Shown: in pieces, positions 4,814-62,426 of the stretch
Layout of the letters: every line of letters begins with the position of its first letter
Numbering within the stretch: position 1 is the first letter of the stretch
Source: Eledone cirrhosa
Lineage: Eukaryota
Length of the DNA stretch: 64,000 bases
Assembly (NCBI GenBank): GCA_964016885.1
Contig: CAXHJY010000726.1
Span: 1 to 64,000 of the forward strand
Reading direction: 5' to 3'
The notes under the pieces: model-generated
Database searches by the model: none
What the model saw: only the letters and a program-made list of their open reading frames with translations
What the model was told of the DNA's origin: nothing
Position numbers and translations under genes: made by a program

Positions 4814-4874
4814 TATTTTATCTGGTGAGTGCGTACCAAAATTCTGGTACCCTTGAAATATATATAATAAAATA
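4814..4874 (+). ncRNA. Type I hammerhead ribozyme-like fold (core CUGGUGA)
   Basis: Stem I TATTTTAT/ATAAAATA, CTGGTGA, stem II GTACCA/TGGTAC, GAAA, palindromic stem III and an AUA triplet. Paralog of 32218-32283. Confidence 0.7.
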
Positions 4875-4915
4875 AATATGGTTTTATAAAGATAGTTTCC
4901 ATTTATTAATATCAT

Positions 4916-5667
<752 letters not shown>

Positions 5668-7218
5668 CACTTCTCCTTATAAACTCTAAAAAATTTAATA
5701 TAGAAAAAACAATTACACAAAATTTTCAAAAACTTCAACTTAAGTATCACCTTAGATAAAAAACACTAAAAACGTCAACTTCCTTGATGCTACTCTTTGC
5801 CTAGACTCTAAAATATACACACCCTATCATAAACCTAACGAAAAACTAATTCATGTGAATACCAACTCTAACCACCCTAAATCCATATTAAACTCTATTA
5901 CTAAAGGAATATCTAATATAATCTCTAATCTATCATATAATGAAACCATATTTAACAATAATTCACAATACTATAATGAGGCCTTAGCTAAATCAGGACA
6001 TAAGAATGAGATTGAATTTCTACCTATAAAATCACATAGTTACAACATTATTTCTCATAATATGGCCATGAGGAAAAATAATAAAAACACTAGCCACTAT
6101 AACTCTAGGCCGAAGGATAATACCAAACTTAACTCGCACCAAATTAAACACCACAATAATAATATAAACAGGGATATAATTACCTCAAAAACCAATACTA
6201 AAAAAAAAATAGAAGGAGAAATAATACATTCTTCAATCCCCCTTTCAATCTAAACGTCTCTACCAACTTGCCTAAGGCTTTCTTCTCAATCTTAGAAAAA
6301 AACTTCCTGTCCGGCCACAAGTACCATAACCTTATCAATAAAAATACAATTAAAATATAGTACTCCACCACACCTAACATAGCATACCATATAGCTAGTA
6401 GTAATAAAAGGAAGATTAATAATTATTTCCAACTAATTAAAACACAACAGGAGGTAAACTTAGTACCTGTAAACAATAGTAATAATAATAGTAATAATGA
6501 TAATAGCACTAATGAAATCAATAACAATACGAATGACAGACATCATTACCCTAGTGCTATCCCTAGCAACCAGAATTCTTCACAACATAGGACCCGGCAA
6601 GCTAACATCCAGAATAAATGTAACTGTAGAACTAATAGAACTTGCTCCTTAGGTAATAATTGCTTAACCAAAGACATCATCTACTCATGCACCGTCAACT
6701 CAAACAACTCTTCTAAAACATATATCGGCTCTACTTCAATCAGCTATAATCTTTTCGAAAATAGACCTCCTTAATAGAAAACCAGAGACAGTTTCCTCGT
6801 GCCAACACCGATTCCGTCACTCGTTCAATAACTTTAAACCTAGCTGTTAGTATAACAATGTCAGATTAGAATTCCCCACCACCATTAACACTTCACATCT
6901 AGGACTTATCAGCCCCCACAACTACACATTCTTTGATCAGCTCTTTCCTCTACACAACTCCTATGTACCTCTAACCTTATACTCTGCAATAACTGTTGGA
7001 ATTAAACATAAAGTTACCACCTTTTGGTATAACTAATATAGCTTAATTATATTATATAAAGTTATGGATATTTAATATGTAGAGACATTTAATGTAATAT
7101 GTAATAATAAACTATATATACATTTATATAATTAAATACTTAAATTAATAACATGTATATAAGGGATCTACATTTAAAACCATGTAATAATAATAAAGTA
7201 TATATACATTTATAATTA

Positions 7219-26581: not shown

Positions 26582-28400
26582 GAATTGTGGTAAGGAACCA
26601 GATGGACCATAACGCACCAGAGTACTCAATACTTAGGGTAATAGAGTGGGAAATAGGAAAAAGTATGACCCCGACGGCAGAACTCAAGCCGTTTCGACGG
26701 CTAATTTCTGGACTAAGAATGTTTAGCCTGGTGAATAAATAGCCGAACTTTTCAAGGGGGTACTTCCTTATATGGGAAGATTGTAGTTGTCAAGAGGATT
26801 GGTTAAAATTTGTTGTAAACACAAATAAGTCTATCATGGTATTTGGTAGGAGGTAGGGGTGGCTGAACTTGTCTGTAGAACAATAGGGGAGTGACTGGAG
26901 CGGTCAGGCATTGAAAGTGATATGTATACAGTAGATTCTAAGGCTAGTGTATGAAGTGGAGGACGGAGGTTATAGAATAGGTAAATCGAATGAGAGTAGG
27001 AGACAATAAAAGATAATAGAAAAAAAATATATATATATTATATTAGATAGGGAGAAATGAATAAAAGAATCACAATGCTATCTTACAATTACAGGTTAAT
27101 AAGTTGAGAATAGAAAAAACTTGTAGAAATTGAGTAGTACCAGAAGTGATACAGAATTAAAGGGGTTTAACACGTCTGCTATAAGTAGTTAGTAAAACGT
27201 ATTCGGCTAATTCTATCTTAAAATTACAGGGGTGGGGGAACTGATGCTACAGAGGCCCGATGGGCTGCATCGGGGTAGGCGAAGGGGAAAAGCAGACGAG
27301 GAAGAAAATAGGGGGTGGAAAGAAACAGGGGGAAGAAGAAGACAAAGAGGAAAAGAAAAGAAAAGAGATACATCTACCTAAGTAAGCTGGGGTTTCCCCT
27401 AACTTATTCGGCAAGTAGAGGGGTATCAGCCCTTGTCTACTCACCCGGGTCGTTATGGGGTTTGAGGGCGAGGTAAGTCATACGCAATCTGTGTTTGCAT
27501 GCGGTTACCAGTTCCTCTTTCTTGTTTAGGAGTTGGTCCTTCGAAAACAGCATTTGTAATGTTTCCTCCGAGCATAAGTTACACGGACGGCGTCCTCCCG
27601 TGTAAGAGTTAGCTTTGGACAGTGAGCTCCAAGTGAGATTGTAGGTTATATTATTATCTGGGAGGTCCCAGATGTGGACCGAAAGTGTAGTGGCCATGTT
27701 TCGGAAAGTATGTCGGTGTTGGTAGAGCCGGGTCTTGAAGTCACACGCGGTTAATCCTATATAAGATTTGTTGGATGTGTCCGTCCTCACGTTGCACTGG
27801 TAGATCACGTTACGTTCTCGGCATTTGTTGTTGAGGGGGCAGTAGATCTATCAGGGCAGTTACACCTCCTGGTCGGCTCTCCACTGATGTCTAGGTTATT
27901 TCTTCCATAGGGGTTGAGTTTTTTGTTGTTTGAGGAGACGATGTTTTGTGCGAAGTTAGGTGTGGTGCTGTGGGAGAGTTTGATGGTGTTTTTGTTGATT
28001 ATGTTGTGGTAGCGGTGTTGTAGTGGGAAGTGTTTTTCGAGGAGTCTAAAGAAGATTTTCCCGATAGGTGTTGCCACCTCGGTATTATGGGGAGGATTGA
28101 ACCACGTTACGTTGCGTGAGCGGCGGTGCCGCCTGCTGGATCCGCTAAGGGAAGCTGGATAAAAGGATATTTCCTCCCGGAAGCCAGTCCGCTTGAGGGC
28201 CTGTTGTAATAAGGCGCATGTTCGTCGAATATCTGCTCATTAGCGGACAAACGAGATATGCGGAGGGAGATGTTTTTAACCAGGTTATTGGTGATGTTTC
28301 TAGTATGGTTAGAGCGGCGGTGGATGTAGTGCAGGTTGTCGTTTGGTTTCCTATATGGGTAGTACAGATAATTTTCGAGGTTAAGGGTAACGTGGGTTCG
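26578..28400 (-). mobile_element. Penelope-like element (Naiad-type), 5'-truncated, with complete GIY-YIG remnant and 3' pLTR
   Basis: YYPYRKPND..SNH, WFNPP, NKNTIKLS, CNC..CPL..C, IYQC..SYIGLT..FKTRLYQH..LSVHIW..CNLCSEE..CKH. The 3' end abuts (TA)n. Confidence 0.92.
26669..26759 (-). ncRNA. Type I hammerhead-like fold with U3-A8 core (UUGAAAA)
   Basis: cccc-TTGAAAA-g..cggcta/tagccg..c-GAAA-cggc..gccGTC-gggg. Confidence 0.65.
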
Positions 28401-32217: not shown

Positions 32218-32283
32218 TATTTTATCTGATGAAAGTGCACCATAGTTTGCTCTGGTGGCCCTTGAAATATGTATAATGAAATA
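32218..32283 (+). ncRNA. Type I hammerhead ribozyme, canonical core
   Basis: tattttat-CTGATGA-aag..cacca/tggtg..ctt-GAAA-tatgtATA-atgaaata, with an 8-bp stem I. Confidence 0.8.
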
Positions 32284-46986: not shown

Positions 46987-47499
46987 TTGCCTCAGCTCAT
47001 TGATCTCTCTCACACATCTTCTCCCCTTCTCACACATTTTACCTGATACTATTGCTTTTGTTCCCTGGTAGGTTTCAGGGATATAATAAATATGTACGAT
47101 TTGTAATCTCAACAGACTATATATATATATATATATATATAGTAATAATAATAAATTTGAAGACTAAAATCCAAAGAGGGCTCGATAAGGATAAATATAT
47201 ATCAAATATATAAGAACCGTAGAGCAAATATTTATTAAAATAACAGATTAAAGTTTAAGCAAAGAATCGCTGCTTTAATCTGTTATTTTAATAAATATAT
47301 ATATATATATATATATTGGTAAACGGAATAGAAAATGCTGACAAATTGTTCACAGTTGAAAAATGGTTTAATTAGGAAATGTGTGAGAAGGGGAGAAGAT
47401 GTGTGAGAGAGATCAATGAGCTGAGGCAATTTCCTAATTAAACCATTTTTCAACTGTGAACAATTTGTCAGCATTTTCTATTCCGTTTACCAATATATA
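46987..47499. repeat. Nested inverted repeats: 47310-47380/47429-47499, spacer equal to the inverse of 46987-47039, and 47229-47253/47273-47297
   Basis: Direct alignment. The arms appear perfect. Confidence 0.95.
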
Positions 47500-51520: not shown

Positions 51521-51632
<112 letters not shown>

Positions 51633-51646
51633 ATAATAATAAAGGT

Positions 51647-51850
51647 GAAGACTAAAATCCAAAGAGGGCTCGATAAGGATAAATATATATCAAATATATA
51701 AGAATCCTAGAGCAAATATTTATTAAAATAACAGATTGAAGTTTAAGCAAAGAATCGCTGCTTTCACCCTTAATGGGATCTTCTGAAATTTTCAGAATAT
51801 ATATCCCAAGAGTGAAAGCAGCGATTCTCTTCTTAAACTTTAATCTGTTA

Positions 51851-51858
<8 letters not shown>
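51647..51858. repeat. pLTR-like repeat (direct copy of 47158-47275) ending in a foldback that contains a hammerhead fold (51740-51789, minus strand, core CAGAAGA)
   Basis: attt-CAGAAGA-tccc/gggt-GAAA-gca..tgCTT-aaac. Flanked by (TA)n on both sides. Confidence 0.8.
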
Positions 51859-51901
<43 letters not shown>

Positions 51902-52820
51902 GATATATATATATATGGGATAACAAATTATCGTTATAGGTAATCCAGTTAGAGGTTGTGAGTACTCCGTATTGTGGATAGTTTTAATGTACAGCGTTGT
52001 TTGACTCAACAAGAGGTTTCCTTATTTAGGTGGCGAGTTCTCGGGAATTCCTATGCAGGTTAATCTTGGAGTAATAATAGTGAAAGAGTGAAGAATAACA
52101 TGGTCAACAGTACAAAAAGGGTTTTATTTACAATATTAACAACTGTTTCATTGATTAGGGTGTCTAAAAATTGCTAATCACTTGAAGTTGTGTCACTCAA
52201 TTTTAAATACATGTACGCCTAATCAAATCATCGGAATAACTGATTAAAATTATACACGGCGCTTGTAATATACTAGGAAAATTCAAATCACATAAGTAAT
52301 AAAGAAAGACAAAGAAAAAAGAAAAAAGAAAAAAGAAAAAGGAAAAAGGAAAAAAGAAAAAAGAAAAAAGAAAAAAGAAAAAAGAAAAAAGAAAAAAGAA
52401 AAAAATAATAAATAAATAATAATAAATAAGTTAGAATGAAGATGATGAAAAATAAGTAAAAAAATATGTGTGAAAAAAAGTGAATATAATATGATTGTTG
52501 AAAATAGTTGCAGTGGTGGTAGTGGGGTGGTTAAAGTTATAGTGGTTGTAAGTATAAAGATGTGATGGTATAAATATGAAAATATTAAATATATACACAT
52601 ATGTATTGGTTAAATTACAGAGGGTTATATTATGAAGAAATAATACAGTGTTACATAAAGGATAAATTAATAAATTGGAAGTTATGTGAGAGGTGAAGAG
52701 AACATGATAGGATATAATGGAAGCGGTGAAATAGTTTTAGGGAAAGAGAGTGAAAGAAAGAAAGGTTAGGAGGTTATAATGTTGATTTAGTGATTAATTG
52801 ATCTATTGACAGTTAATAAT

Positions 52821-53037
52821 GGTTTCTTATATAGGCACAAGGTCAGTAATTTGGAGGAGGGGAAAGTCGATTAAATCGACTCCAGTTCGTGACTGGTACT
52901 TTATTTTATCGACCCCATAAGGATGAAAGGCAAAGTTAACCTCGGCGGGATTTGAGCTCAGATCATAAAGAGCCGTAACTCTATGCTGCAAAGCATGGCG
53001 TCCGACCTTCTACCAATACTGCCAATCCACCGCCCTC
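52821..53037 (-). mobile_element. Young tRNA-derived SINE with a TSD of about 19 bp
   Basis: TCTATTGACAGTTAATAAT on both sides. Confidence 0.92.
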
Positions 53038-53052
53038 TATTGACAGTTAATA

Positions 53053-53243
53053 ATAATTGTTTCTACTTTTGGCACAACGCCAGCAATTACCCACTGCATT
53101 ACTGGTACTTTATTTTATCGACCCCGTAAGGATGAAAGGCAAAGTTAACCTCGGCGGGATTTGAAATCAGAATGGTAAGGGCCGTAACTCTATACGTCAA
53201 AGCATGGCGTCCGACCCGCTACCTATACTGCCAATCGACCGCT
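53053..53243 (-). mobile_element. tRNA-derived SINE, short subfamily
   Basis: Same family as 41905. Confidence 0.9.
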
Positions 53244-53817
53244 AATAATAATGGGTTATTATAATAGACTCTAAGTGGTTCAATTTTAATTATGGGATTG
53301 TTGGATCGAATCATGTTGGTTTGAAATTTGCGAATTTAGTAGCTGCTTTATGCCTACAGAAAATTGACCGTTCTATTTTGCTGTTAAACAGCATTTTGTC
53401 ATACTTTAAAATATAGAGCAACTCCATATTGCAAAGTCCACAGTGGGACATTCCATTTTTGTAGGCCTTTGCCCCCGATAATTTCGACCAGCTAATCCCG
53501 TATTCTTGGTTTGTATCCTTAAGCTGGTAGATTTTATTGGCGAGCGTTGTTGTGTTCTCTCTCTCTTTTTCTTTTTTTCTGTTTTTCTTTTTCTTTCTTT
53601 ATTACTGATGTTGTGATTTGAATTTTCCTAGTATACAAACGCTGTGTATAATTTTAATCAGTTATTCCGATGATTTGATTAGGCATACATGTATTTAAAA
53701 TTGAGTGATACAACTTCAAGTGATTAGCAATTTTTAGACATCCTAATCAACGAAACAATTGTTAATACTGTAAATAAAACCCTTTTTGTACTGTTGACCA
53801 TGTTATTCTTCACTCTT

Positions 53818-53856
<39 letters not shown>

Positions 53857-54569
53857 GTGTTTATCTATTCTCCCCCATTTATTATAATGGCTTACATTTT
53901 TTAACACGATATCTTCTTTCTTCTTCTTGGTTTTTTTCCTTCCTTTCTTTCTTCTTCTTTTTCTTTGTTTCTTTCATAACTTGTGCTATGAAGCACTACT
54001 TCTTTTCTCTGACGTCACACAAAATTGTATGTGTTTTGTAACTTAACTGCTATAAACTAATGTTCCGCCTCAAGTCTCTTCCTCCTTTGGACAGCGTTTG
54101 GCTTATGTCAGACGCTGTGACTCCAGATATCACCAGCAGTACCGTTGGTAGGGGTTGAAACTGCCCAAGTCCATCTCAATGGCCGATGACCATGAAGTTC
54201 CGTGTCCGTTTGTATGTTTATTTAAATAAAATAATTTTGTTTTGAAATGGTCATATCAACCTCTGTTTACAAATTATCTGCTATTTCAAACTATATTTTT
54301 GTAAGCAATAATCAGTACACATATCCCCTGATTGTTTCCACCTGAAGATTACTACACATTTCTCTCTGTAATACGGAATGAGTAATGACCATTACTCAAG
54401 TCCAGAAAGAGGTTATCAGTAAACACTGATTCAATAAGCATTCCACTCTACACTATATATATCGTGTACTCAAATTCTGTAAGGGTTTACACACAGACAG
54501 ACAGACAGACACACACACACACATATATATATATAGGTATAAACACTATGTGTGTATGTGTATGTGAAA

Positions 54570-54860
54570 GCTCTTGGCTTTGTGGTGAGAAGGTGCGGCT
54601 CATGGCTTCTGTACGAGCAGTGTCGTTGAGCAAGACATTTTATTTCCCATTGCACCGCTCCACTCAGCTAGCAAAGGATAGTTGTACATATAGGTCAAAG
54701 GCTTAGTCTTGGCACATTTTGTGTCACGTTCAACCCTACTGAGAATCAGTTAAACTAAACGTGTCTGTGAAATGTTCAGCCATTTGAACATTTCTTTCAC
54801 GAGTAAGCTGTTTCGTTGATAAAACAACTGCTACGGTCGTCGTTGGAACAGACGGATATC
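54570..54860 (+). mobile_element. CORE-type SINE (diverged)
   Basis: TTGAGCAAGACATTTTATTTC core. The 3' body is like 14030-14200. Confidence 0.7.
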
Positions 54861-55306
54861 CAGCATTATCATACATATAAAAATATATGGAGATCTATAC
54901 GCACATATTCAAAAATTTGATATTACAGTTGTAAGATTTCTGTGATCATTTTCTTTCTGTTTTTGTGCGTGATACAAAATACAGTTTGATGAATAGTAGG
55001 GATTTTACAACTCCGTGTTTGTATAACAAAATCAATTCATTAAATGATATTTTGATACTCTCTATGAACGAAATGTTCTTATCATGCAACCATCGCCTGT
55101 TGGCTGATATCAATTGGGAATTACTCTCTTTCCCTCTCTCTCGTCTCTCTCCCTCTCTCGTCCATTCTCTCCGTCTCTCGTCCATTCCCCCCCCCCTCTC
55201 TCTCTGTCGCGCTCTCTCTCTCCCTTTCTTTCTTTCTCTTTCTCTTCTTGAAACGCAGATTTAGTTGATGGAGAAACAACACGATATTTACACACGGTTT
55301 AAATAA

Positions 55307-55341
<35 letters not shown>

Positions 55342-55667
55342 CGTATGTTATATCTATCTGTATCTATTCTCCTCTCCCCCCCTCTCTCTCTCTGTATATA
55401 TATATATATATATATGCCTATATATGTATCTGTGTGTGGGCGAGTTTGTGTATAAGATGCCATTACTTAAATTACTAGGAGGAACATTATTCAACTCAGT
55501 ACTCGATATTTAAAGGATTGTAGAGAGTAGACATTATTTATTACATGAAAACTGGACGTTCAAGCTTAAATCGTTTTTATGGTTGAATAGCAATTAAATT
55601 CAGTTGACCAGATTTAATATGTTTCTACCACCATCTCTTTAGGGAAAAGGGATATTTATGAATTGAT

Positions 55668-55708
<41 letters not shown>

Positions 55709-55879
55709 AAGATAGAAAGTGAGAAAGAATGAAAGAAAGGACACAAAAGGGAGATGAGTTAGGCCAGCAAGTGTCTTGGAGATATAAAAGCAATCAAAAA
55801 TACATTTAAGATATGTTGATGCGAAAAAATGTCTGTTCTGTTGAATATAAATGGTCCCTAAACAGAAAACATTATTTTA

Positions 55880-56265
55880 ATCGGTAGAGGGTCGGACGCC
55901 ATGCTTTCCAGCATAGTTACGTCCCTTTATGGTCTGAGTTCAAATCCCGCCGAGGTTAACTTTGCCTTTCATCCTTACGGCGTCGATAAAATAAAGTACC
56001 AGTAATGCACTGGGTAATTGCTGGCCTTGTAGTAACAATTATTTTATTGAGGGCGGTGGATTAGCAGTATCGGTGGAGGGTCGGACGCCATGCTTTGCAG
56101 CATAGAGTTACGGCTCTTTATGATCTGAGCTCAAATCCCACCGAGGTTAACTTTGCCTTTCATCCTTATGGGGTCGATAAAATAAAGTACCAGTCACGCA
56201 CTGGGGTCGATTTAATCGACTTTCCCCTCCCCCAAATATGCCTTGTGCCTATATAAGAAACCATT
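55880..56265 (+). mobile_element. Two tandem tRNA-derived SINEs (55880-56035, 56049-56265)
   Basis: The same two subfamilies as at 52821-53243. Confidence 0.92.
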
Positions 56266-56274
56266 ATTTTATAT

Positions 56275-56690
56275 ATTTCCACTAAAAAAGAGAGAGAGAG
56301 AGAGAGAGATTTTCTAACATAGAACCAAGACACTTTCATTGGAACATAGACTAAGTAAATACATATGTATGTATATGTGTGTGTGTGTATGTGTCTGTGT
56401 GTATATGGCTGTTATTGCATGTGTGGATCTATGTTTTGAGTATATGTGTACACGTGCATCTGTGTCTGTGTCTATACATGTGTACATGGAGTTATTAAAT
56501 GTCGAATTTCTTAAATGTTTTATATATTTTTAGTTCCATTAATCGACTGTACTTGCAACTTCCTAACTAGCCGTGCTCTTTCTGGTTCTGTGAAGCCCAG
56601 CTCCTTAAAATTTGTATTGAAGCGGTTAGTAATATATACTAGAGCTCAACTGATCATAAGTACAAATCTGAAGGTATAGTCATAGTGAAG
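56275..56690 (-). mobile_element. R4/Dong LINE, short 3' fragment
   Basis: Homologous to 57462-57880 (ELGFTEPERARLVRKLQVQSINGT and the 3' UTR). Confidence 0.85.
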
Positions 56691-56786
56691 TATGTATGTA
56701 TGTATGTATGTATGTATGTATGTATGTATGTATGTATGTATGTATGTATGTATGTATGTATGTATGTATGTATGTATGTATGTATG

Positions 56787-57391
56787 TCAGGTCACCAGTT
56801 GGTGGTACTGGTAACATGTATCCCAGTACAACCTGTCTCATGGTCGGGTCGTTGGCGACTAAACTAACAACCCAACCAAGGTTCTTGGTGAGGAGGGTGA
56901 CTTTGGACATCCTGCAGGACAAAAAAAAACCTGTCAAAGACCAAAGGAGCTCTTAAGAGTCAATGGCCATCCAAAATCACCAGGAGAGATGACCCCTTAG
57001 CTTTTGTCAAGGAAGAATTCTAGGAGAAGGAAAACTCTGATATAACACCTGCAACCCTGATGGTATCCAATGATGTTGACTTGTTCTTCTTTTTGGTAAA
57101 TATCATCTTGGTTAAGAGAGCGGGATTGGCTTTGTGCAGTACCTTTGCTCACTATAAAAGCTTCACGGCACAGGCATTGCTTTATATCTGGAGATCTCTC
57201 TACACTTGTCGTCATATGGTAACATGAGCCCAGCACTATGTGTCAATAATTATCACAAGTCTAGTGTTTGTACCAGAGTTTTCAAGTCGCTGGCTGGACT
57301 AAAACGTCACACTCGTTCAGCGTATCGGTAGGGGTTCTCCTACATGGATATAAAGTAGTGGCCGTACTCGAAAACGAGTTGGCAGCCACCA
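56787..57391 (+). mobile_element. Non-autonomous RTE-derived element of about 600 bp, between (TATG)n runs
   Basis: Ends with an RTE-type C2H2 remnant (CTRVFKSLAGLKRHTR), a 3' stem-loop CTCG-AAAA-CGAG and a (TATG)n tail. An inverted copy lies at 62440-63043. Confidence 0.7.
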
Positions 57392-60300
57392 TGTATGTAT
57401 GTATGTATGTATGTATGTATGTATGTATGTATGTATGTATGTATGTATGTATGTATGTATGTTCTTCTGGTTTTATAATTTCACAAATTTTTACCAATAG
57501 AGAGAGAGTCGGTTTCTAACATAGACTCAAGACTATCTCATTGGAATTTACACAACATCAACTAGGTAGATATGTATGTATGCATGCATGTGTAGATATG
57601 GATGTTATTGTATGTGTGGATGTGATGTTTTGAGTTGTATGTGTGCATGTGTATATGCTTTGTATCTGTACATGTGTATATGCAGTTATTAGATGCAAAA
57701 TGTTTGGAATGTTTTACATATTTTTACTGTTCCATTAATGGATTGTACTTGCAATTTCCTAACTAGTTGTATTCTTTCTGTTCCTGTGAAGCCTAGCTTC
57801 TCAATATTTGTATTGAGGCAGTTACTAACATCACCCAGTGCCCCAATAATCACAGGCATAAATCTGAAGGTGTAATCAGGGTGGAGTATCTGCAGATTTC
57901 TCATCAGTTCTGCATAAATATTCTCCTTTTCACTAATCTTTGATATTATATTGGCATCTGCTGGGCAGCTAATTTCCACTATTATGCATGCTTTCTTCTC
58001 CCTGTCCTATATCATAATATCTGGTCTGTTATGCCTGCATTTTATTGGGGTTTTTACTGGGACATTCCTCTAGTACTCTTTCATATTATGTACATGGATG
58101 TCTTCCACATTGCTGTAGTTTTTAATGTGTTTATTATCGGGGCTATCTTTTTTACGGATTTCATTGTACAGTGTTTTGGCCACTACATCATGCCTCATAG
58201 GTAGATAGTACCGCGATGACATCTTTGGACAGCTGCTGATGACATGGGTGACATCTTCGATGTTAATTCTGCAGAGTCTGCACTCGTTATCACATCTAGG
58301 TGTTTTTCCTGCATCCCTATCTCTTTTGTGAATCAGGTATTTCGTGTTAATCTCCTGTTCTTGGATTGCAAAAGCGTATCCTTCACAGTGGGAGCCAATA
58401 TAGTAGTTGTGGGTCCAAGATAGACTACTTTCCTTATCTATATTACTCTCACTCTGGAGCTTACTGGCAACATATCCATGCATGATTTTATGCTGATAAG
58501 CATGCAGTATTTCATCCATGGATTCACTGCGATACTGCTGAGCGACTTCCCTGGGTGTGAGGTTTTGATTATCACACAGGGAATATCTCTCGAGGAGTTC
58601 CTTCCCAACTCTCATGACCTTATCTGTTTCATGCAGATAGGCTTGCTTGAGAGGCGGGCTCCTACGCTTCGAGGTTCGTAGATGTTGTCGGAGGGATATG
58701 ATGCGACATTCAAATGCTGTCTGGACTGATGTTAGGCCTCTGCCTCCCTGCTTACGTTTCAAGTAAAGGCGGTCTATGTCACTGTTAATGTGGAAGTTTC
58801 CGGTGTTGTTTAGTATCTTTCGAGTTCTAACATTAACTGCTCGGATTTCGTCTATCGTCCAATTGAGTATTCCAAACGTTGGTGTTAGTACAGGCACATC
58901 AAACATATTGTGAGCCACTATTTGTTTTGTGCAGAGAGTTCCGATGACCAAATCTTTCTTAATCGGGTGTAGTATTCCTTGGTTACAGATACCATTATAG
59001 GATATGTTCTCATCTATACCAGGTATCTGTAGCAGTTCTCATCAGATATCGGTGAAACAGTTAGGCCATTGATGACAATGTTGCTAGAATGGGTTGTTGT
59101 TTTCCCCCGCTTTACAGTCATATATGAGCATTTATCTTGGCCAAACTCCATTCCTATATCCTTTGAGAACGTTGTAACCAGGTCAAGATTTTTCTTCATC
59201 CCATCCATGTTTTGGCATAGAGTTTCAGATCATCCACAAACAAATTATGGGTTAGGTTCGTATATCTGTCCTCCTGTGAGCCAATGATGCATCCTTCACA
59301 TTTCTTGAGCAGAAAACACAATGGATGAATAATATCACAGAGTGACAGTCTCCCTGAAATATACCCCTGCAATATTTTATTTTATCAGTGAAAATAGAGT
59401 CCTCCCTCTCTGTCTTTAACATTAGGATAATAGCCCAAAAAGAAAACAGCTTCTCAATAGCTCTGATAATAATGTCTGAGACTTTAGCTAGTTGGAGGGC
59501 CTCTATCATCCAAGAGTGGGGAACAGAATCGAAAGCTTTCCTGTAGTCCAGCCAGACTGTAGCCATATTCCTCCTAAGTTGTCGCACCTCCGACATCGCA
59601 GTCTTGTTGATTAAGAGTTGTTCAGCTCATCCCCAAACCCCTTTCTTTCCAGTTGCTTGTTCATCTGTGATGATGTTATTATTTTCACAGTGATCTTGGA
59701 GGAATAGTTTCAGGCAGGCTGATACATCCTATACACCAGGTTCTGGCATGCAATGGGTCGGTAGTTTTTTGCCAAGTGGGTGTCTTTGTTCTTGGGGACC
59801 AGTAATGTTTGTGCTAATGTCAACCATTCTGGTATAAGTGTATCTCCCTTAAGAACTTGTTGGTAGAGGTCAGTAAGATACCTCCGATAGAATATCAGTT
59901 TTTTCTACCAGTAGCCGACAATCATGTCTCTTCCTGGTGTTTTCTTATCTTGGAGTTTTCCTATCATAGTCTCAAGGGTACCCTCACTTATTTCGGATGT
60001 TTTTGTTGTAGTGTAGGAGCAATAGTTCTTTCGAATTTCTTTTAGCCACACTGCATCTTGGTTGAAATTCTTCTTTTCACCCCATATTTTGCTCCAAAAG
60101 GAATCAATGTCTTTCTGGGATGGAGCCTCAGTGACACTTATTATTTTATTCTTCATATCTCTATAGACTGATATTTGGTTTCGTCATAATCTTTTATTAA
60201 ACACTTTTCTCTCATCTACCTTCTTCAGGTGTCGGCGTTTTTCGCTAACAGCTCTCAATTCTTGTTTGAGGGTGATCAGCGTATATTGAAGAGTTCTGGT

Positions 60301-60473
60301 TCTACTGTTACCAAACATCGTCTCTATTTTATTTTTCACTCTCTGTTGGTGAGGAGTGGGTTTTTTTTGTGTTTGTTTGCATGTAAGGAGCATTGTCACA
60401 TATCCTATGGTTTTTCGTAGGTCAGCAATCTCTTTTTCTATTTTAGTTATATATGATGGTTTTTTATTAAATA

Positions 60474-60765
60474 CTAGCAGAATGGCCCGGCGTTGCTCGG
60501 GATTTGCTCTAGGGTTCTTATATATTTGATATATATTTATCCTTATCGAGCCTCGTGAAATAAATACGTTTGTTTATATTTTGTTATTGTGTATGCAAAA
60601 ATATCTGTACACGAATATATAATTATATATATATATATATATTAAAATACTAGATTAAAGTTTAAGCAAAGAATCGCTACTTTCACCCTTAACAGGATCA
60701 TCTGAAACTAAAATAAAAAAAATCAATTTGTGAACGCAGAAGTAAATATTTCGAAAATCGTTACA

Positions 60766-60811
<46 letters not shown>

Positions 60812-61139
60812 GCACACTATATATGCATATATATACACACACACACACAGCTACGTCATGATGTCGTAATACAGACAGCCAGGCATACAGACAGATATTA
60901 TAAGGGCGCAACGTTATATATATGTATCTATCTAAAAAGAGAAAGACTAAGAGAGAGATAGAGGTATCGCTAAATCGCCTAATGCGGTCCCTAGGGCATT
61001 GAAAATTTGAAATATTTTGCTCAAAACACTCACAGGACCATAAGTATTGCATGTGTAAAGTTTGAAAACAATGGGTTGGGTGGTTCTCGAGTTTTAGTGA
61101 TCGGAGTGACAGACAGACATATATCTTTAGATATATAGA
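60474..61139 (-). mobile_element. Complete non-autonomous Helitron (666 bp)
   Basis: 5' A|TCTATATATCTAAAG; 3' hairpin CCCGAGCAACGCCGGG, then 8 nt, then CTAG|T. No TSD. Removal restores the host LINE reading frame. Confidence 0.93.
60659..60709 (-). ncRNA. Type I hammerhead-like fold (core CAGAUGA) inside the Helitron
   Basis: agttt-CAGATGA-tcct/gggt-GAAA-gta..tgCTT-aaact. Confidence 0.72.
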
Positions 61140-62426
61140 TTGTCGCTTTAATACGTTCAGCAAGAGAGATATTTATACATGAATTAATTTCTCTTTGGAA
61201 GATTTCGTTGAGGGGAATTTTCAATTGTTTATACTTTTGATTATTATCATTATCGATAGTGTTTTCCCTAGCATTCGAGGTAGACTTAGATGGTACACGT
61301 GGTGTCAAGTTTCTTACAGGCATAGTTGTTTCAAGGCGCTGTTCGACTTTGCTGCTAGGAAGTCTAGTAGCATAGCGACCTATAGCACGTGTTGTTGATC
61401 CCCTGTTTGTTGTGGGAGACTTACAGTTAATAATATTTATCTTATTTTTACGTTCAACAAACGTCGATTGATGGCATAATTGTATGTATTTTTTTTCTTT
61501 TGTGGAGCGAGAGACTCCTCGTCTTCATTAAAACATCTCTCTTGGAGAAGGTCACTCTGATATAAAAACTGTGACTTCGTTTGCATCAAATTATGAAAAC
61601 AAGTTCTTTTTGTGCAAATATAATCGCTATTCAGAGAGTAGGATTGGCAAAGCCTTTGCATGATGTTGCTAAAATATATAATACCATCGGTAGGAGACAC
61701 TGCTCTTGGGTAGATATTAGAGACTACCTCTGTTATTAAATATATGCATGTGTATCAGCGATTGGAATATTGGAACATTCCCATTAAAACTTCCGCCTGA
61801 TATCGTTGTTTGGTACAGAATTGAAACATTATGAAGTCATAGGCCCAGTTGTTCTGCTGATGCAAACATTTCACAAAATCAATTGGAAAAACAATATCTA
61901 TGGGCAACAACTTCGAAGCCTATAGATTCTCTATCGAGATTATAAGTTAATATTTATAGCTATAAGAATTAGTGCACGTGGCTTTGTTAATAAATGTCAA
62001 GGGGGTAATTGAGAATAGCTAGCATTTTTAAGCAATGGAAATGATCATGCAAATATGCACATCGTAAATATAAGTTGTAAGCGGAACAGTAAAAACATGC
62101 AATACTTTTCTAAAGTTCAGCATTTTTATTATTTAAATTCCAACAATAGAGCTTTCTTTATAATTTTTTCGTTACAGGAAGGTTTCAAATAATCAAAAAG
62201 ACAAGAAGAAAGTAACTGAATCACTGGTATTGTCTTGGTGCAAACTAAAAAGCATTGTCACCTTGTTAGGCACTCGCTTGAATTCTGCAACGACTTAAAG
62301 TAAAGAGAAATTCACATACATACATACATGATGGCTGCCCCTTCGTTATCGAGTATAGCCATTACACAATAAAAAAAAAATATATAAAATAAATAAATAA
62401 ATAAAAACATATATATATACATATAT

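Follow-up and report, generated by a model that had tools for sequence, protein, structure and literature searches.

The purpose of the hammerhead ribozymes carried by Penelope-like elements (PLEs) is debated, the roles proposed in the cited parts of the literature being transcript processing, the making of circles or simply riding along with the element (PMC8557442, PMC11167929). Members of the Hydra clade are defined by RWK-type and DKT motifs, a CxCX5C linker and an endonuclease with CxxC and CxH motifs (PMC8557442, section 11). All 26 of the published Hydra-clade rows show the core CUGANGA and a GUH cleavage site, the descriptor used in that study having required a canonical core (PMC8557442, File S2). 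Low activity in vitro has been described for the minimal PLE hammerheads of metazoans (PMC4209133). Here, we describe a related motif from a 64,000 nt stretch of Eledone cirrhosa DNA (assembly GCA_964016885.1, contig CAXHJY010000726.1, positions 1–64,000; hereafter called the window). A first-pass annotation of this stretch had pointed to two motifs, at 51740–51789 and 60659–60709 on the reverse strand, with the core CAGANGA, i.e., adenine rather than uridine at position 4 (A4 and U4), and the cleavage triplet CUU, and both are indeed present. As judged from sequence, the motif is a type I hammerhead located in the pseudo-long terminal repeat (pseudo-LTR) of a young, autonomous PLE of the Hydra clade, and A4 is the state of its family, which numbers more than 20,000 copies, a conclusion supported by the genome-wide counts given below.

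Results

The Motif Belongs to a Hydra-Clade Penelope-Like Element

Pairs of motif matches lying 2–5 kb apart in the genome were used to locate the element and led to an intact copy, L041, in which a hammerhead at nt 1927 is followed by an ATG at nt 2124, a second hammerhead at nt 5186 and then (TA)n. The unit between the two hammerheads is 3,259 nt long and carries an open reading frame (ORF) of the reverse transcriptase and GIY-YIG type. This ORF, which lies between the direct repeats and specifies a protein of 709 amino acids (aa), contains QFDI, YRDD and YIG motifs, as well as RWR at position 37, DKT at 115, CNCRNRADC at 564 (CxCX5C), CDLC at 662 and CKH at 690. The assignment to the Hydra clade is based on these motifs rather than on a tree. 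Pfam returned no informative match to the ORF, but one homologue carries PF01541. The 20 best-ranked loci for an outside protein (P0001) all belong to the A4 family, and seven of them are open for more than 700 aa, are 95–99% identical, and have A4 in their aligned hammerheads. The same search of the genome with P0001 returned no nearer sister family. Full-length elements with intact 709-aa ORFs thus provide the autonomous partner that the first-pass annotation had left to be found.

The 3' ends of aligned pieces cluster at two sites, L041 1996 (77 pieces) and L041 2081 (39 pieces), and are followed by TA repeats. These ends sit 29 and 114 nt past the predicted cut (after L041 1967). Insertion into (TA)n, 5' truncation, inverted 5' copies and an optional 'tail' (the sequence up to the second end) were all observed. 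The hammerhead is at the place expected in a pseudo-LTR but, having A4, is not canonical. A non-LTR retrozyme was considered as an alternative identity and rejected, as the copies are 3' fragments of a coding element and the window contains no short tandem array.

Several other features of the element were seen. Immediately past each of the two 3' ends, folding predicts a hairpin with GCUC/GAGC-like arms (L041 1994–2050 and 2078–2110). Rare variants, up to four of them, are often common to the 5' and 3' pseudo-LTRs of a single insertion (L111–L130, L049), which would fit copying of more than a unit length of one template and is not proof of circles or of cleavage. The 3' untranslated region (UTR) of L041 includes a diverged tandem duplication of about 135 nt (4833–5102, ~78% identical), the number of units of which seems to vary between copies.

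A4 Is the State of the Family

The tabulation of position 4 across the genome, proposed in the first-pass annotation, gave 22,884 exact pattern matches with A4 and 110 with U4 (0.5%), counts that need the rest of the pattern to be intact. The same exact pattern read backwards gave no genome matches, and a hammerhead descriptor with position 4 left free matched 218 times in 740 kb of loci, hitting 165 copies, and not once in the same loci reversed; because both reversed controls were empty, chance is excluded as the source of the matches. An independent sample of 121 copies came from loci chosen on their 3' UTR or protein and not on the motif. In these, position 4 is A in 117, C in two, G in two and U in none, while at each of the other core sites (C3-G5-A6-G8-A9, G12-A13-A14, A15.1-U16.1 and H17) the majority base is found in at least 117 of the 121. 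U16.1 and U17 have the majority base in all 117 copies that cover them. The A4 family therefore lacks U4, the base of the uridine turn by which type I hammerheads are recognised, and is best described from its sequence as a variant, one that descends from the Penelope-type hammerhead and probably works like it.

The U4 copies occur on the backgrounds of both subfamilies (old and young, see below) and so are recurrent revertants. In one complex insertion (L049; G000:C9:23473000-23481000), three hammerhead copies share U4 and two other changes, from which it follows that a U4 template was also retrotransposed; despite this, U4 has stayed at 0.5%. A C4 subfamily was not detected in this genome among 297 aligned pieces compared with the bases characteristic of an orthologous family in another organism (organism M), the best piece having two of nine markers. 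In runs X6, X7, X8, X10 and X17, the matches listed, which are of low depth, show no other letter at position 4 and are compatible with A4. Runs X13 and X15 gave one contig each, matching L041 exactly, and range was not judged from them.

Conservation of the Fold and Core

All type I pairs (stems I, II and III) can form in the intact copy at L041 1906–1981. Old and young subfamilies were compared using an alignment of 26 old and 24 young copies (50 copies from 60 loci, ten of which gave none that was usable). Fixed differences were found at 4 of 200 coding bases, 87 of 650 in the 3' UTR (13%) and 9 of 114 just before the motif, compared with two in the 76-nt motif, where they fall in the stem I bulge, and none in the next 14 nt. 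None of the 69 core, stem and inner-loop sites had changed (Fisher tests against the 3' UTR and the upstream sequence, p = 1.4e-4 and 0.014, respectively). Over L041 4051–5254, the two subfamilies differ by 102 fixed substitutions, of which 32 are old A/young T and two are old T/young A. Copy-private mutations show no such A/T skew, and the internal duplicate suggests A as ancestral at three of the four A/T sites that could be checked; a copying step of the element with an A-to-U bias is possible.

The orthologous family of organism M (run X16, 2,082 contigs) has many flanking differences, yet its stems and core are kept. Using contig depth as a rough measure of frequency, position 4 is C in 80%, T in 14% and A in 6%. 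Outside CpG sites, the other common changes affect the bulge (two sites), N7, loops II and III and a single pair of stem I (A-U to G-U). The 14% T at position 4 was considered as a possible ancestral U4 subfamily but this was rejected, since C4-G5 is a CpG and other CpGs show 7% C>T. Changes in stems are one-sided and solely to G-U (stem III in this genome, stem I in X16), and no compensatory pair was found. When the two comparisons are pooled, 5 of 20 free sites were changed and 1 of 56 constrained sites was broken (p = 0.004; 3 of 56 and p = 0.026 with wobbles included). The fold is likely still under selection.

Predicted Folding and Points Against

The 9-bp distal part of stem I has a predicted pair probability of 0.72–1.0. 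A 7-nt U-rich bulge in stem I and an A in loop II are present, and may form a tertiary contact. Energy-based folding does not separate A4 from U4 (one natural U4 copy was folded), and six stretches from the window and L041 fold no better than shuffles.

A number of results weigh against a selected fold that still cuts. The pooled comparison was post hoc, CpG sites having been set aside and the 7% threshold chosen after the table was made, and a stem I G>A at 6% in X16 fell just under that threshold. At the rate of the free sites, the probability of seeing no change at the 10 other core sites is 0.056. An upstream stretch of 150 nt, which has internal duplications and aligns poorly, also has no fixed substitutions, and loops II and III and the tail are nearly invariant within the genome too, so conservation may be of the whole 3' block, with other signals sharing the constraint. 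For the 76-nt RNA, an alternative fold is predicted at -15.1 kcal/mol versus -13.0 for the hammerhead, C3-A4 pairing with UGAAA at a probability of 0.40, and proximal stem I is predicted to be paired at only ~0.08. The sole natural U4 copy that could be folded whole also scored low (0.01), and the folding model is therefore a poor judge here. None of the 21 ORF-joined copies and none of the 304 aligned pieces has its start at the predicted cut site, a result that is not decisive. CUU is a poor cleavage triplet, and in having it with G15.2-C16.2 the family is unlike all 26 published Hydra rows. Complete pairwise mutagenesis of one hammerhead found all CUGA mutants to be weak except for a C3-G8 swap (PMC9901934).

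Two published examples speak for residual activity. PAc, the Poseidon element of Anolis, does cleave and is also without RNA ends at the cut site; its hammerhead cleaves solely in the presence of protein, and mutants still insert in vitro (PMC11167929). A viroid with a U4C variant is weak in vitro and still supports infection (PMC3088659).

Discussion

The reading we favour, to which we give about even chances, is that the A4 motif is an attenuated or protein-assisted ribozyme, which cleaves itself slowly or with the help of the element's protein. Reverse transcription would start at the two 3' sites, its template being RNA that runs unbroken through the cut site, either uncut or cut and rejoined. 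A continuous template is what the 3' ends beyond the cut imply, and on such a template fast cleavage would not be needed, so that position 4 may have been relaxed. This position shapes the uridine turn and takes no part in the chemistry, and would have relaxed to A here and mostly to C in organism M, while G8, G12 and other core bases would be kept for the occasional processing of read-through transcripts.

A non-cutting but retained fold, the main rival, is a real, if minority, possibility. In that case U4A, along with the CUU site, would have killed catalysis and the region would overlap another signal, such as a protein-binding RNA site ahead of the reverse-transcription starts or a promoter in the pseudo-LTR. 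The low activity of CUGA mutants (PMC9901934), the normal insertion in vitro of PAc elements with mutated hammerheads (PMC11167929) and the reported spread of Naiad and most Chlamys elements without canonical hammerheads (PMC8557442) all suit it, as do loops and tail that are as conserved as the core, the lack of 5' ends at the cut site, and a position 4 that takes A, C or U with U4 revertants that never swept. Against this, substitutions between lineages spare the pairs and catalytic bases and are instead found in loops, the bulge and N7, a pattern that an RNA hammerhead fold fits better than a DNA promoter, and the sole core site that moves is position 4, which is tolerant of C in a viroid. 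At the other extreme, a fully active variant, in which a tertiary contact between the U-rich 7-nt bulge and the loop II adenines compensates for A4 and normal rates are retained, seems improbable. The predicted distal stem I (pair probability 0.72–1.0) would support such a contact, a loop II A and a bulge U are the ingredients of a conserved A-U Hoogsteen contact (PMC2553840), and core changes that are weak in engineered RNA have been found active in natural ribozymes (PMC10085705), but no rescue of a CUGA mutant was seen among all double mutants of one hammerhead (PMC9901934), lineages differ in the bulge and in loop II, folding predicts a competing structure, and the metazoan PLE hammerheads tested so far are slow (PMC4209133).

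Very unlikely, in our assessment, is neutral hitch-hiking, by which one dead master was amplified without constraint and the sameness of the copies reflects youth, template switching or carriage by Helitrons. The young subfamily is very recent (ORFs 95–99% identical), some copies travel in a Helitron-like DNA element, and exchange of 3' ends between subfamilies may occur. A4 is found, however, in both subfamilies even though they are 13% apart in the 3' UTR, a Helitron-type 3' flank was seen in just seven of the copies listed, and the organism M orthologue differs at many flanking sites while keeping stems and core. The attenuated or protein-assisted ribozyme remains our preferred explanation for these patterns.

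The family is young, has intact ORFs, and carries as its fixed state a core change expected, from published mutagenesis, to be crippling. It offers a natural experiment on whether RNA cutting is needed by these elements at all, and the controls are natural too: the approximately 110 U4 revertants on both backgrounds, an insertion copied off a U4 template, the orthologous family with C4, and sister families of canonical type in this genome. Should A4 cut, both the consensus and the descriptors used to search for hammerheads would have to be broadened; should it not, the family would be a clean example of a retroelement that thrives while its ribozyme fold is dead yet conserved.

Copies of the Motif in the Window

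Copy 1 (51740–51789, reverse strand) has C3 at 51785, A4 at 51784 and a predicted cut after U17 at 51745, and copy 2 (60659–60709, reverse strand) has C3 at 60704, A4 at 60703 and a predicted cut after 60664. The layout is the same in both: C-A-G-A-N-G-A, a 3-bp stem II flanked by U.U, GAAA, a 4-bp stem III, CUU and stem I. They differ at N7 (A/U, at 60700), in stem II (60694) and in stem III (C/U, at 60679), as had been noted before, and also in loop II (51774); a single CpG accounts for the changes at 60694 and 51774, which are its two deamination products. Both copies are damaged. An inversion junction truncates copy 1 on its 5' side, with most of the 5' strand of stem I gone; in copy 2, distal stem I carries three changes and the bulge is longer. 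The first-pass annotation regarded the three differences as tolerated substitutions and the pair as the best case for A4 being the family state. The family state holds, on the strength of the genome-wide counts, but not that line of reasoning, as most of the differences reflect damage or variants of minor sub-lineages: in the 121-copy sample, 120 copies have A at N7 and none has U, seven have the stem II change and four the stem III change. CpG decay and rare variants in damaged copies make them weak evidence of tolerance. The intact motif is also longer than the 51 nt RNA suggested earlier for a cleavage assay, which would omit the 9-bp distal stem I that closes the 7-nt bulge and would be based on damaged copies.

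The concern that the two copies might be local duplicates of one mutated ancestor is not borne out, and the two copies also differ in origin. Copy 1 is part of a two-armed insertion in (TA)n (flanks at 51592–51629 and 51856–51916). The long arm (51631–51788, reverse strand) carries the hammerhead and tail, ends at the family's second 3' end, and aligns to L041 1924–2081 with seven differences (95.6% identity), while the short inverted arm (51808–51863, forward strand; L041 1941–1996) runs to the first 3' end and is without the C3-A9 strand. Copy 2, in contrast, lies in an old-subfamily pseudo-LTR fragment (60635–60765, reverse strand), which aligns to L041 1872–1996 and has the diagnostic bases of that subfamily. 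It is carried by a non-autonomous Helitron-like element (60474–61139, reverse strand), recognised by terminal features, that also contains an inverted tail piece (60502–60552, forward strand; L041 1995–2045). A third insertion of the A4 family (47143–47298) is again two-armed (47276–47143, reverse strand; 47273–47298, forward strand) and is truncated inside the hammerhead. The short copies in the window are best read as dead by-products of the autonomous element.

The Helitron-like carrier begins with TC after A and ends with a GC-rich hairpin and CTAG before T, and its ends (61139 and 60474) recur with different flanks in four (5') and eight (3') other loci. The label presumes that a 5' TC, a 3' hairpin with CTRR and insertion between A and T are the defining features of Helitrons. 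This element has captured two retrotransposon pieces and is itself nested in a broken LINE-like element (ORF pieces at 58070–59626, 60184–60573 and 61030–61524). Related Helitron-like carriers hold further degenerate copies of the motif, with U3. An Rfam scan of the window (E ≤ 1) matched no hammerhead family, and none was matched in an intact copy (L115 4500–4656) at E ≤ 10; the test is weak because the canonical-core motif at 32226 was missed as well. This last motif (forward strand) is a CUGAUGA type I hammerhead of another repeat family and has a palindromic stem III.

Position 4 in Other Families

Among 77 metagenome loci with related proteins, the free-position descriptor found 41 sense-strand motifs in 35 loci, of which 39 have U4, two have C4 and none has A4. 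In a sister family in this genome (52% aa identity), the corresponding place ahead of the 3' end is occupied by a hammerhead of the U3-A8 type; a 5'-truncated copy lies at 27437–28391 of the window (reverse strand), and in the hammerheads of other copies the stem II domain is ~55 nt long and the cleavage site is GUC. A second Hydra-type family, present in the window at 52234 (reverse strand) and 53667 (forward strand), has C4 in 12 and U4 in seven of 19 aligned copies, which were chosen by likeness to a C4 copy. Its stem II is long, and fragments of Hydra-type ORFs occur in 7 of 15 loci. In a family with a canonical core and CUU, U4 is present in all 39 copies, and the link to a Hydra-type ORF is loose (2 of 20 loci). 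A degenerate fragment of a third Hydra-type element is found at 5756–6774 (forward strand; 32–46% aa identity). Clusters of descriptor matches include no other A4 family apart from three weak TAGAAAA matches.

The literature, in the parts cited, offers a remark on a viroid U4C variant and no A4 hammerhead, although the survey of Lunse et al. 2017, figures and supplements may hold some, and none of the CAGANGA-type strings among the matches listed was relevant. A tentative generalisation, which we think rather doubtful, is that Hydra-clade hammerheads have repeatedly given up U4, for A in the present family and for C in its orthologue and a second family, and still cut, with the element's protein or the stem I bulge as substitute. 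If true, A4 would be a working core whose reduced activity spares enough RNA for reverse transcription, and searches with the standard CUGANGA would be overlooking entire families of ribozymes in genomes.

Comparison with Known Systems

Like the minimal PLE hammerheads of metazoans (Cervera and de la Pena 2014, PMC4209133), the motif is present in both repeats of the element, and there are many solo truncated copies and inverted pairs 100–700 bp apart. The minimal forms have CUGANGAH and little or palindromic helix III, and act as dimers, whereas the A4 family has four pairs and a non-palindromic 7-nt loop (PMC4209133). Core variants listed by Perreault et al. 2011 (viroid U4C, U3-A8, A6C and U15.1-A16.1; PMC3088659) are, as A4 is, one position off the consensus, and the U10.1.U11.1 start of stem II is also found there. 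They are rare single RNAs, and A at position 4 is not named in the cited part of that paper (PMC3088659), while A4 is fixed in a family of more than 20,000 copies.

PAc (Frangieh et al. 2024, PMC11167929) also has two reverse-transcription starts that define a tail, and its template is continuous across the ribozyme, as the A4 template appears to be, with no ends at the cut site in either (PMC11167929). It belongs, however, to Penelope/Poseidon, and its hammerhead overlaps the start codon and cleaves with protein (PMC11167929), unlike the A4 motif, which sits ~200 nt before the ATG. The closest relatives are the Hydra-clade hammerheads (Craig et al. 2021, PMC8557442), which share the sense-strand type I motif near the 3' end of the pseudo-LTR, the extra U after A9 and before G12, a true stem III and an H17 that is often U (PMC8557442). 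The protein marks and the targeting of (TA)n are likewise the same (PMC8557442). Judged by its motif, the A4 family is not Hydra-1_oBim (PMC8557442), and it is set apart from the published Hydra-clade rows, which have CUGANGA and C15.2-G16.2 (PMC8557442), by A4 and by G15.2-C16.2 with the CUU site.

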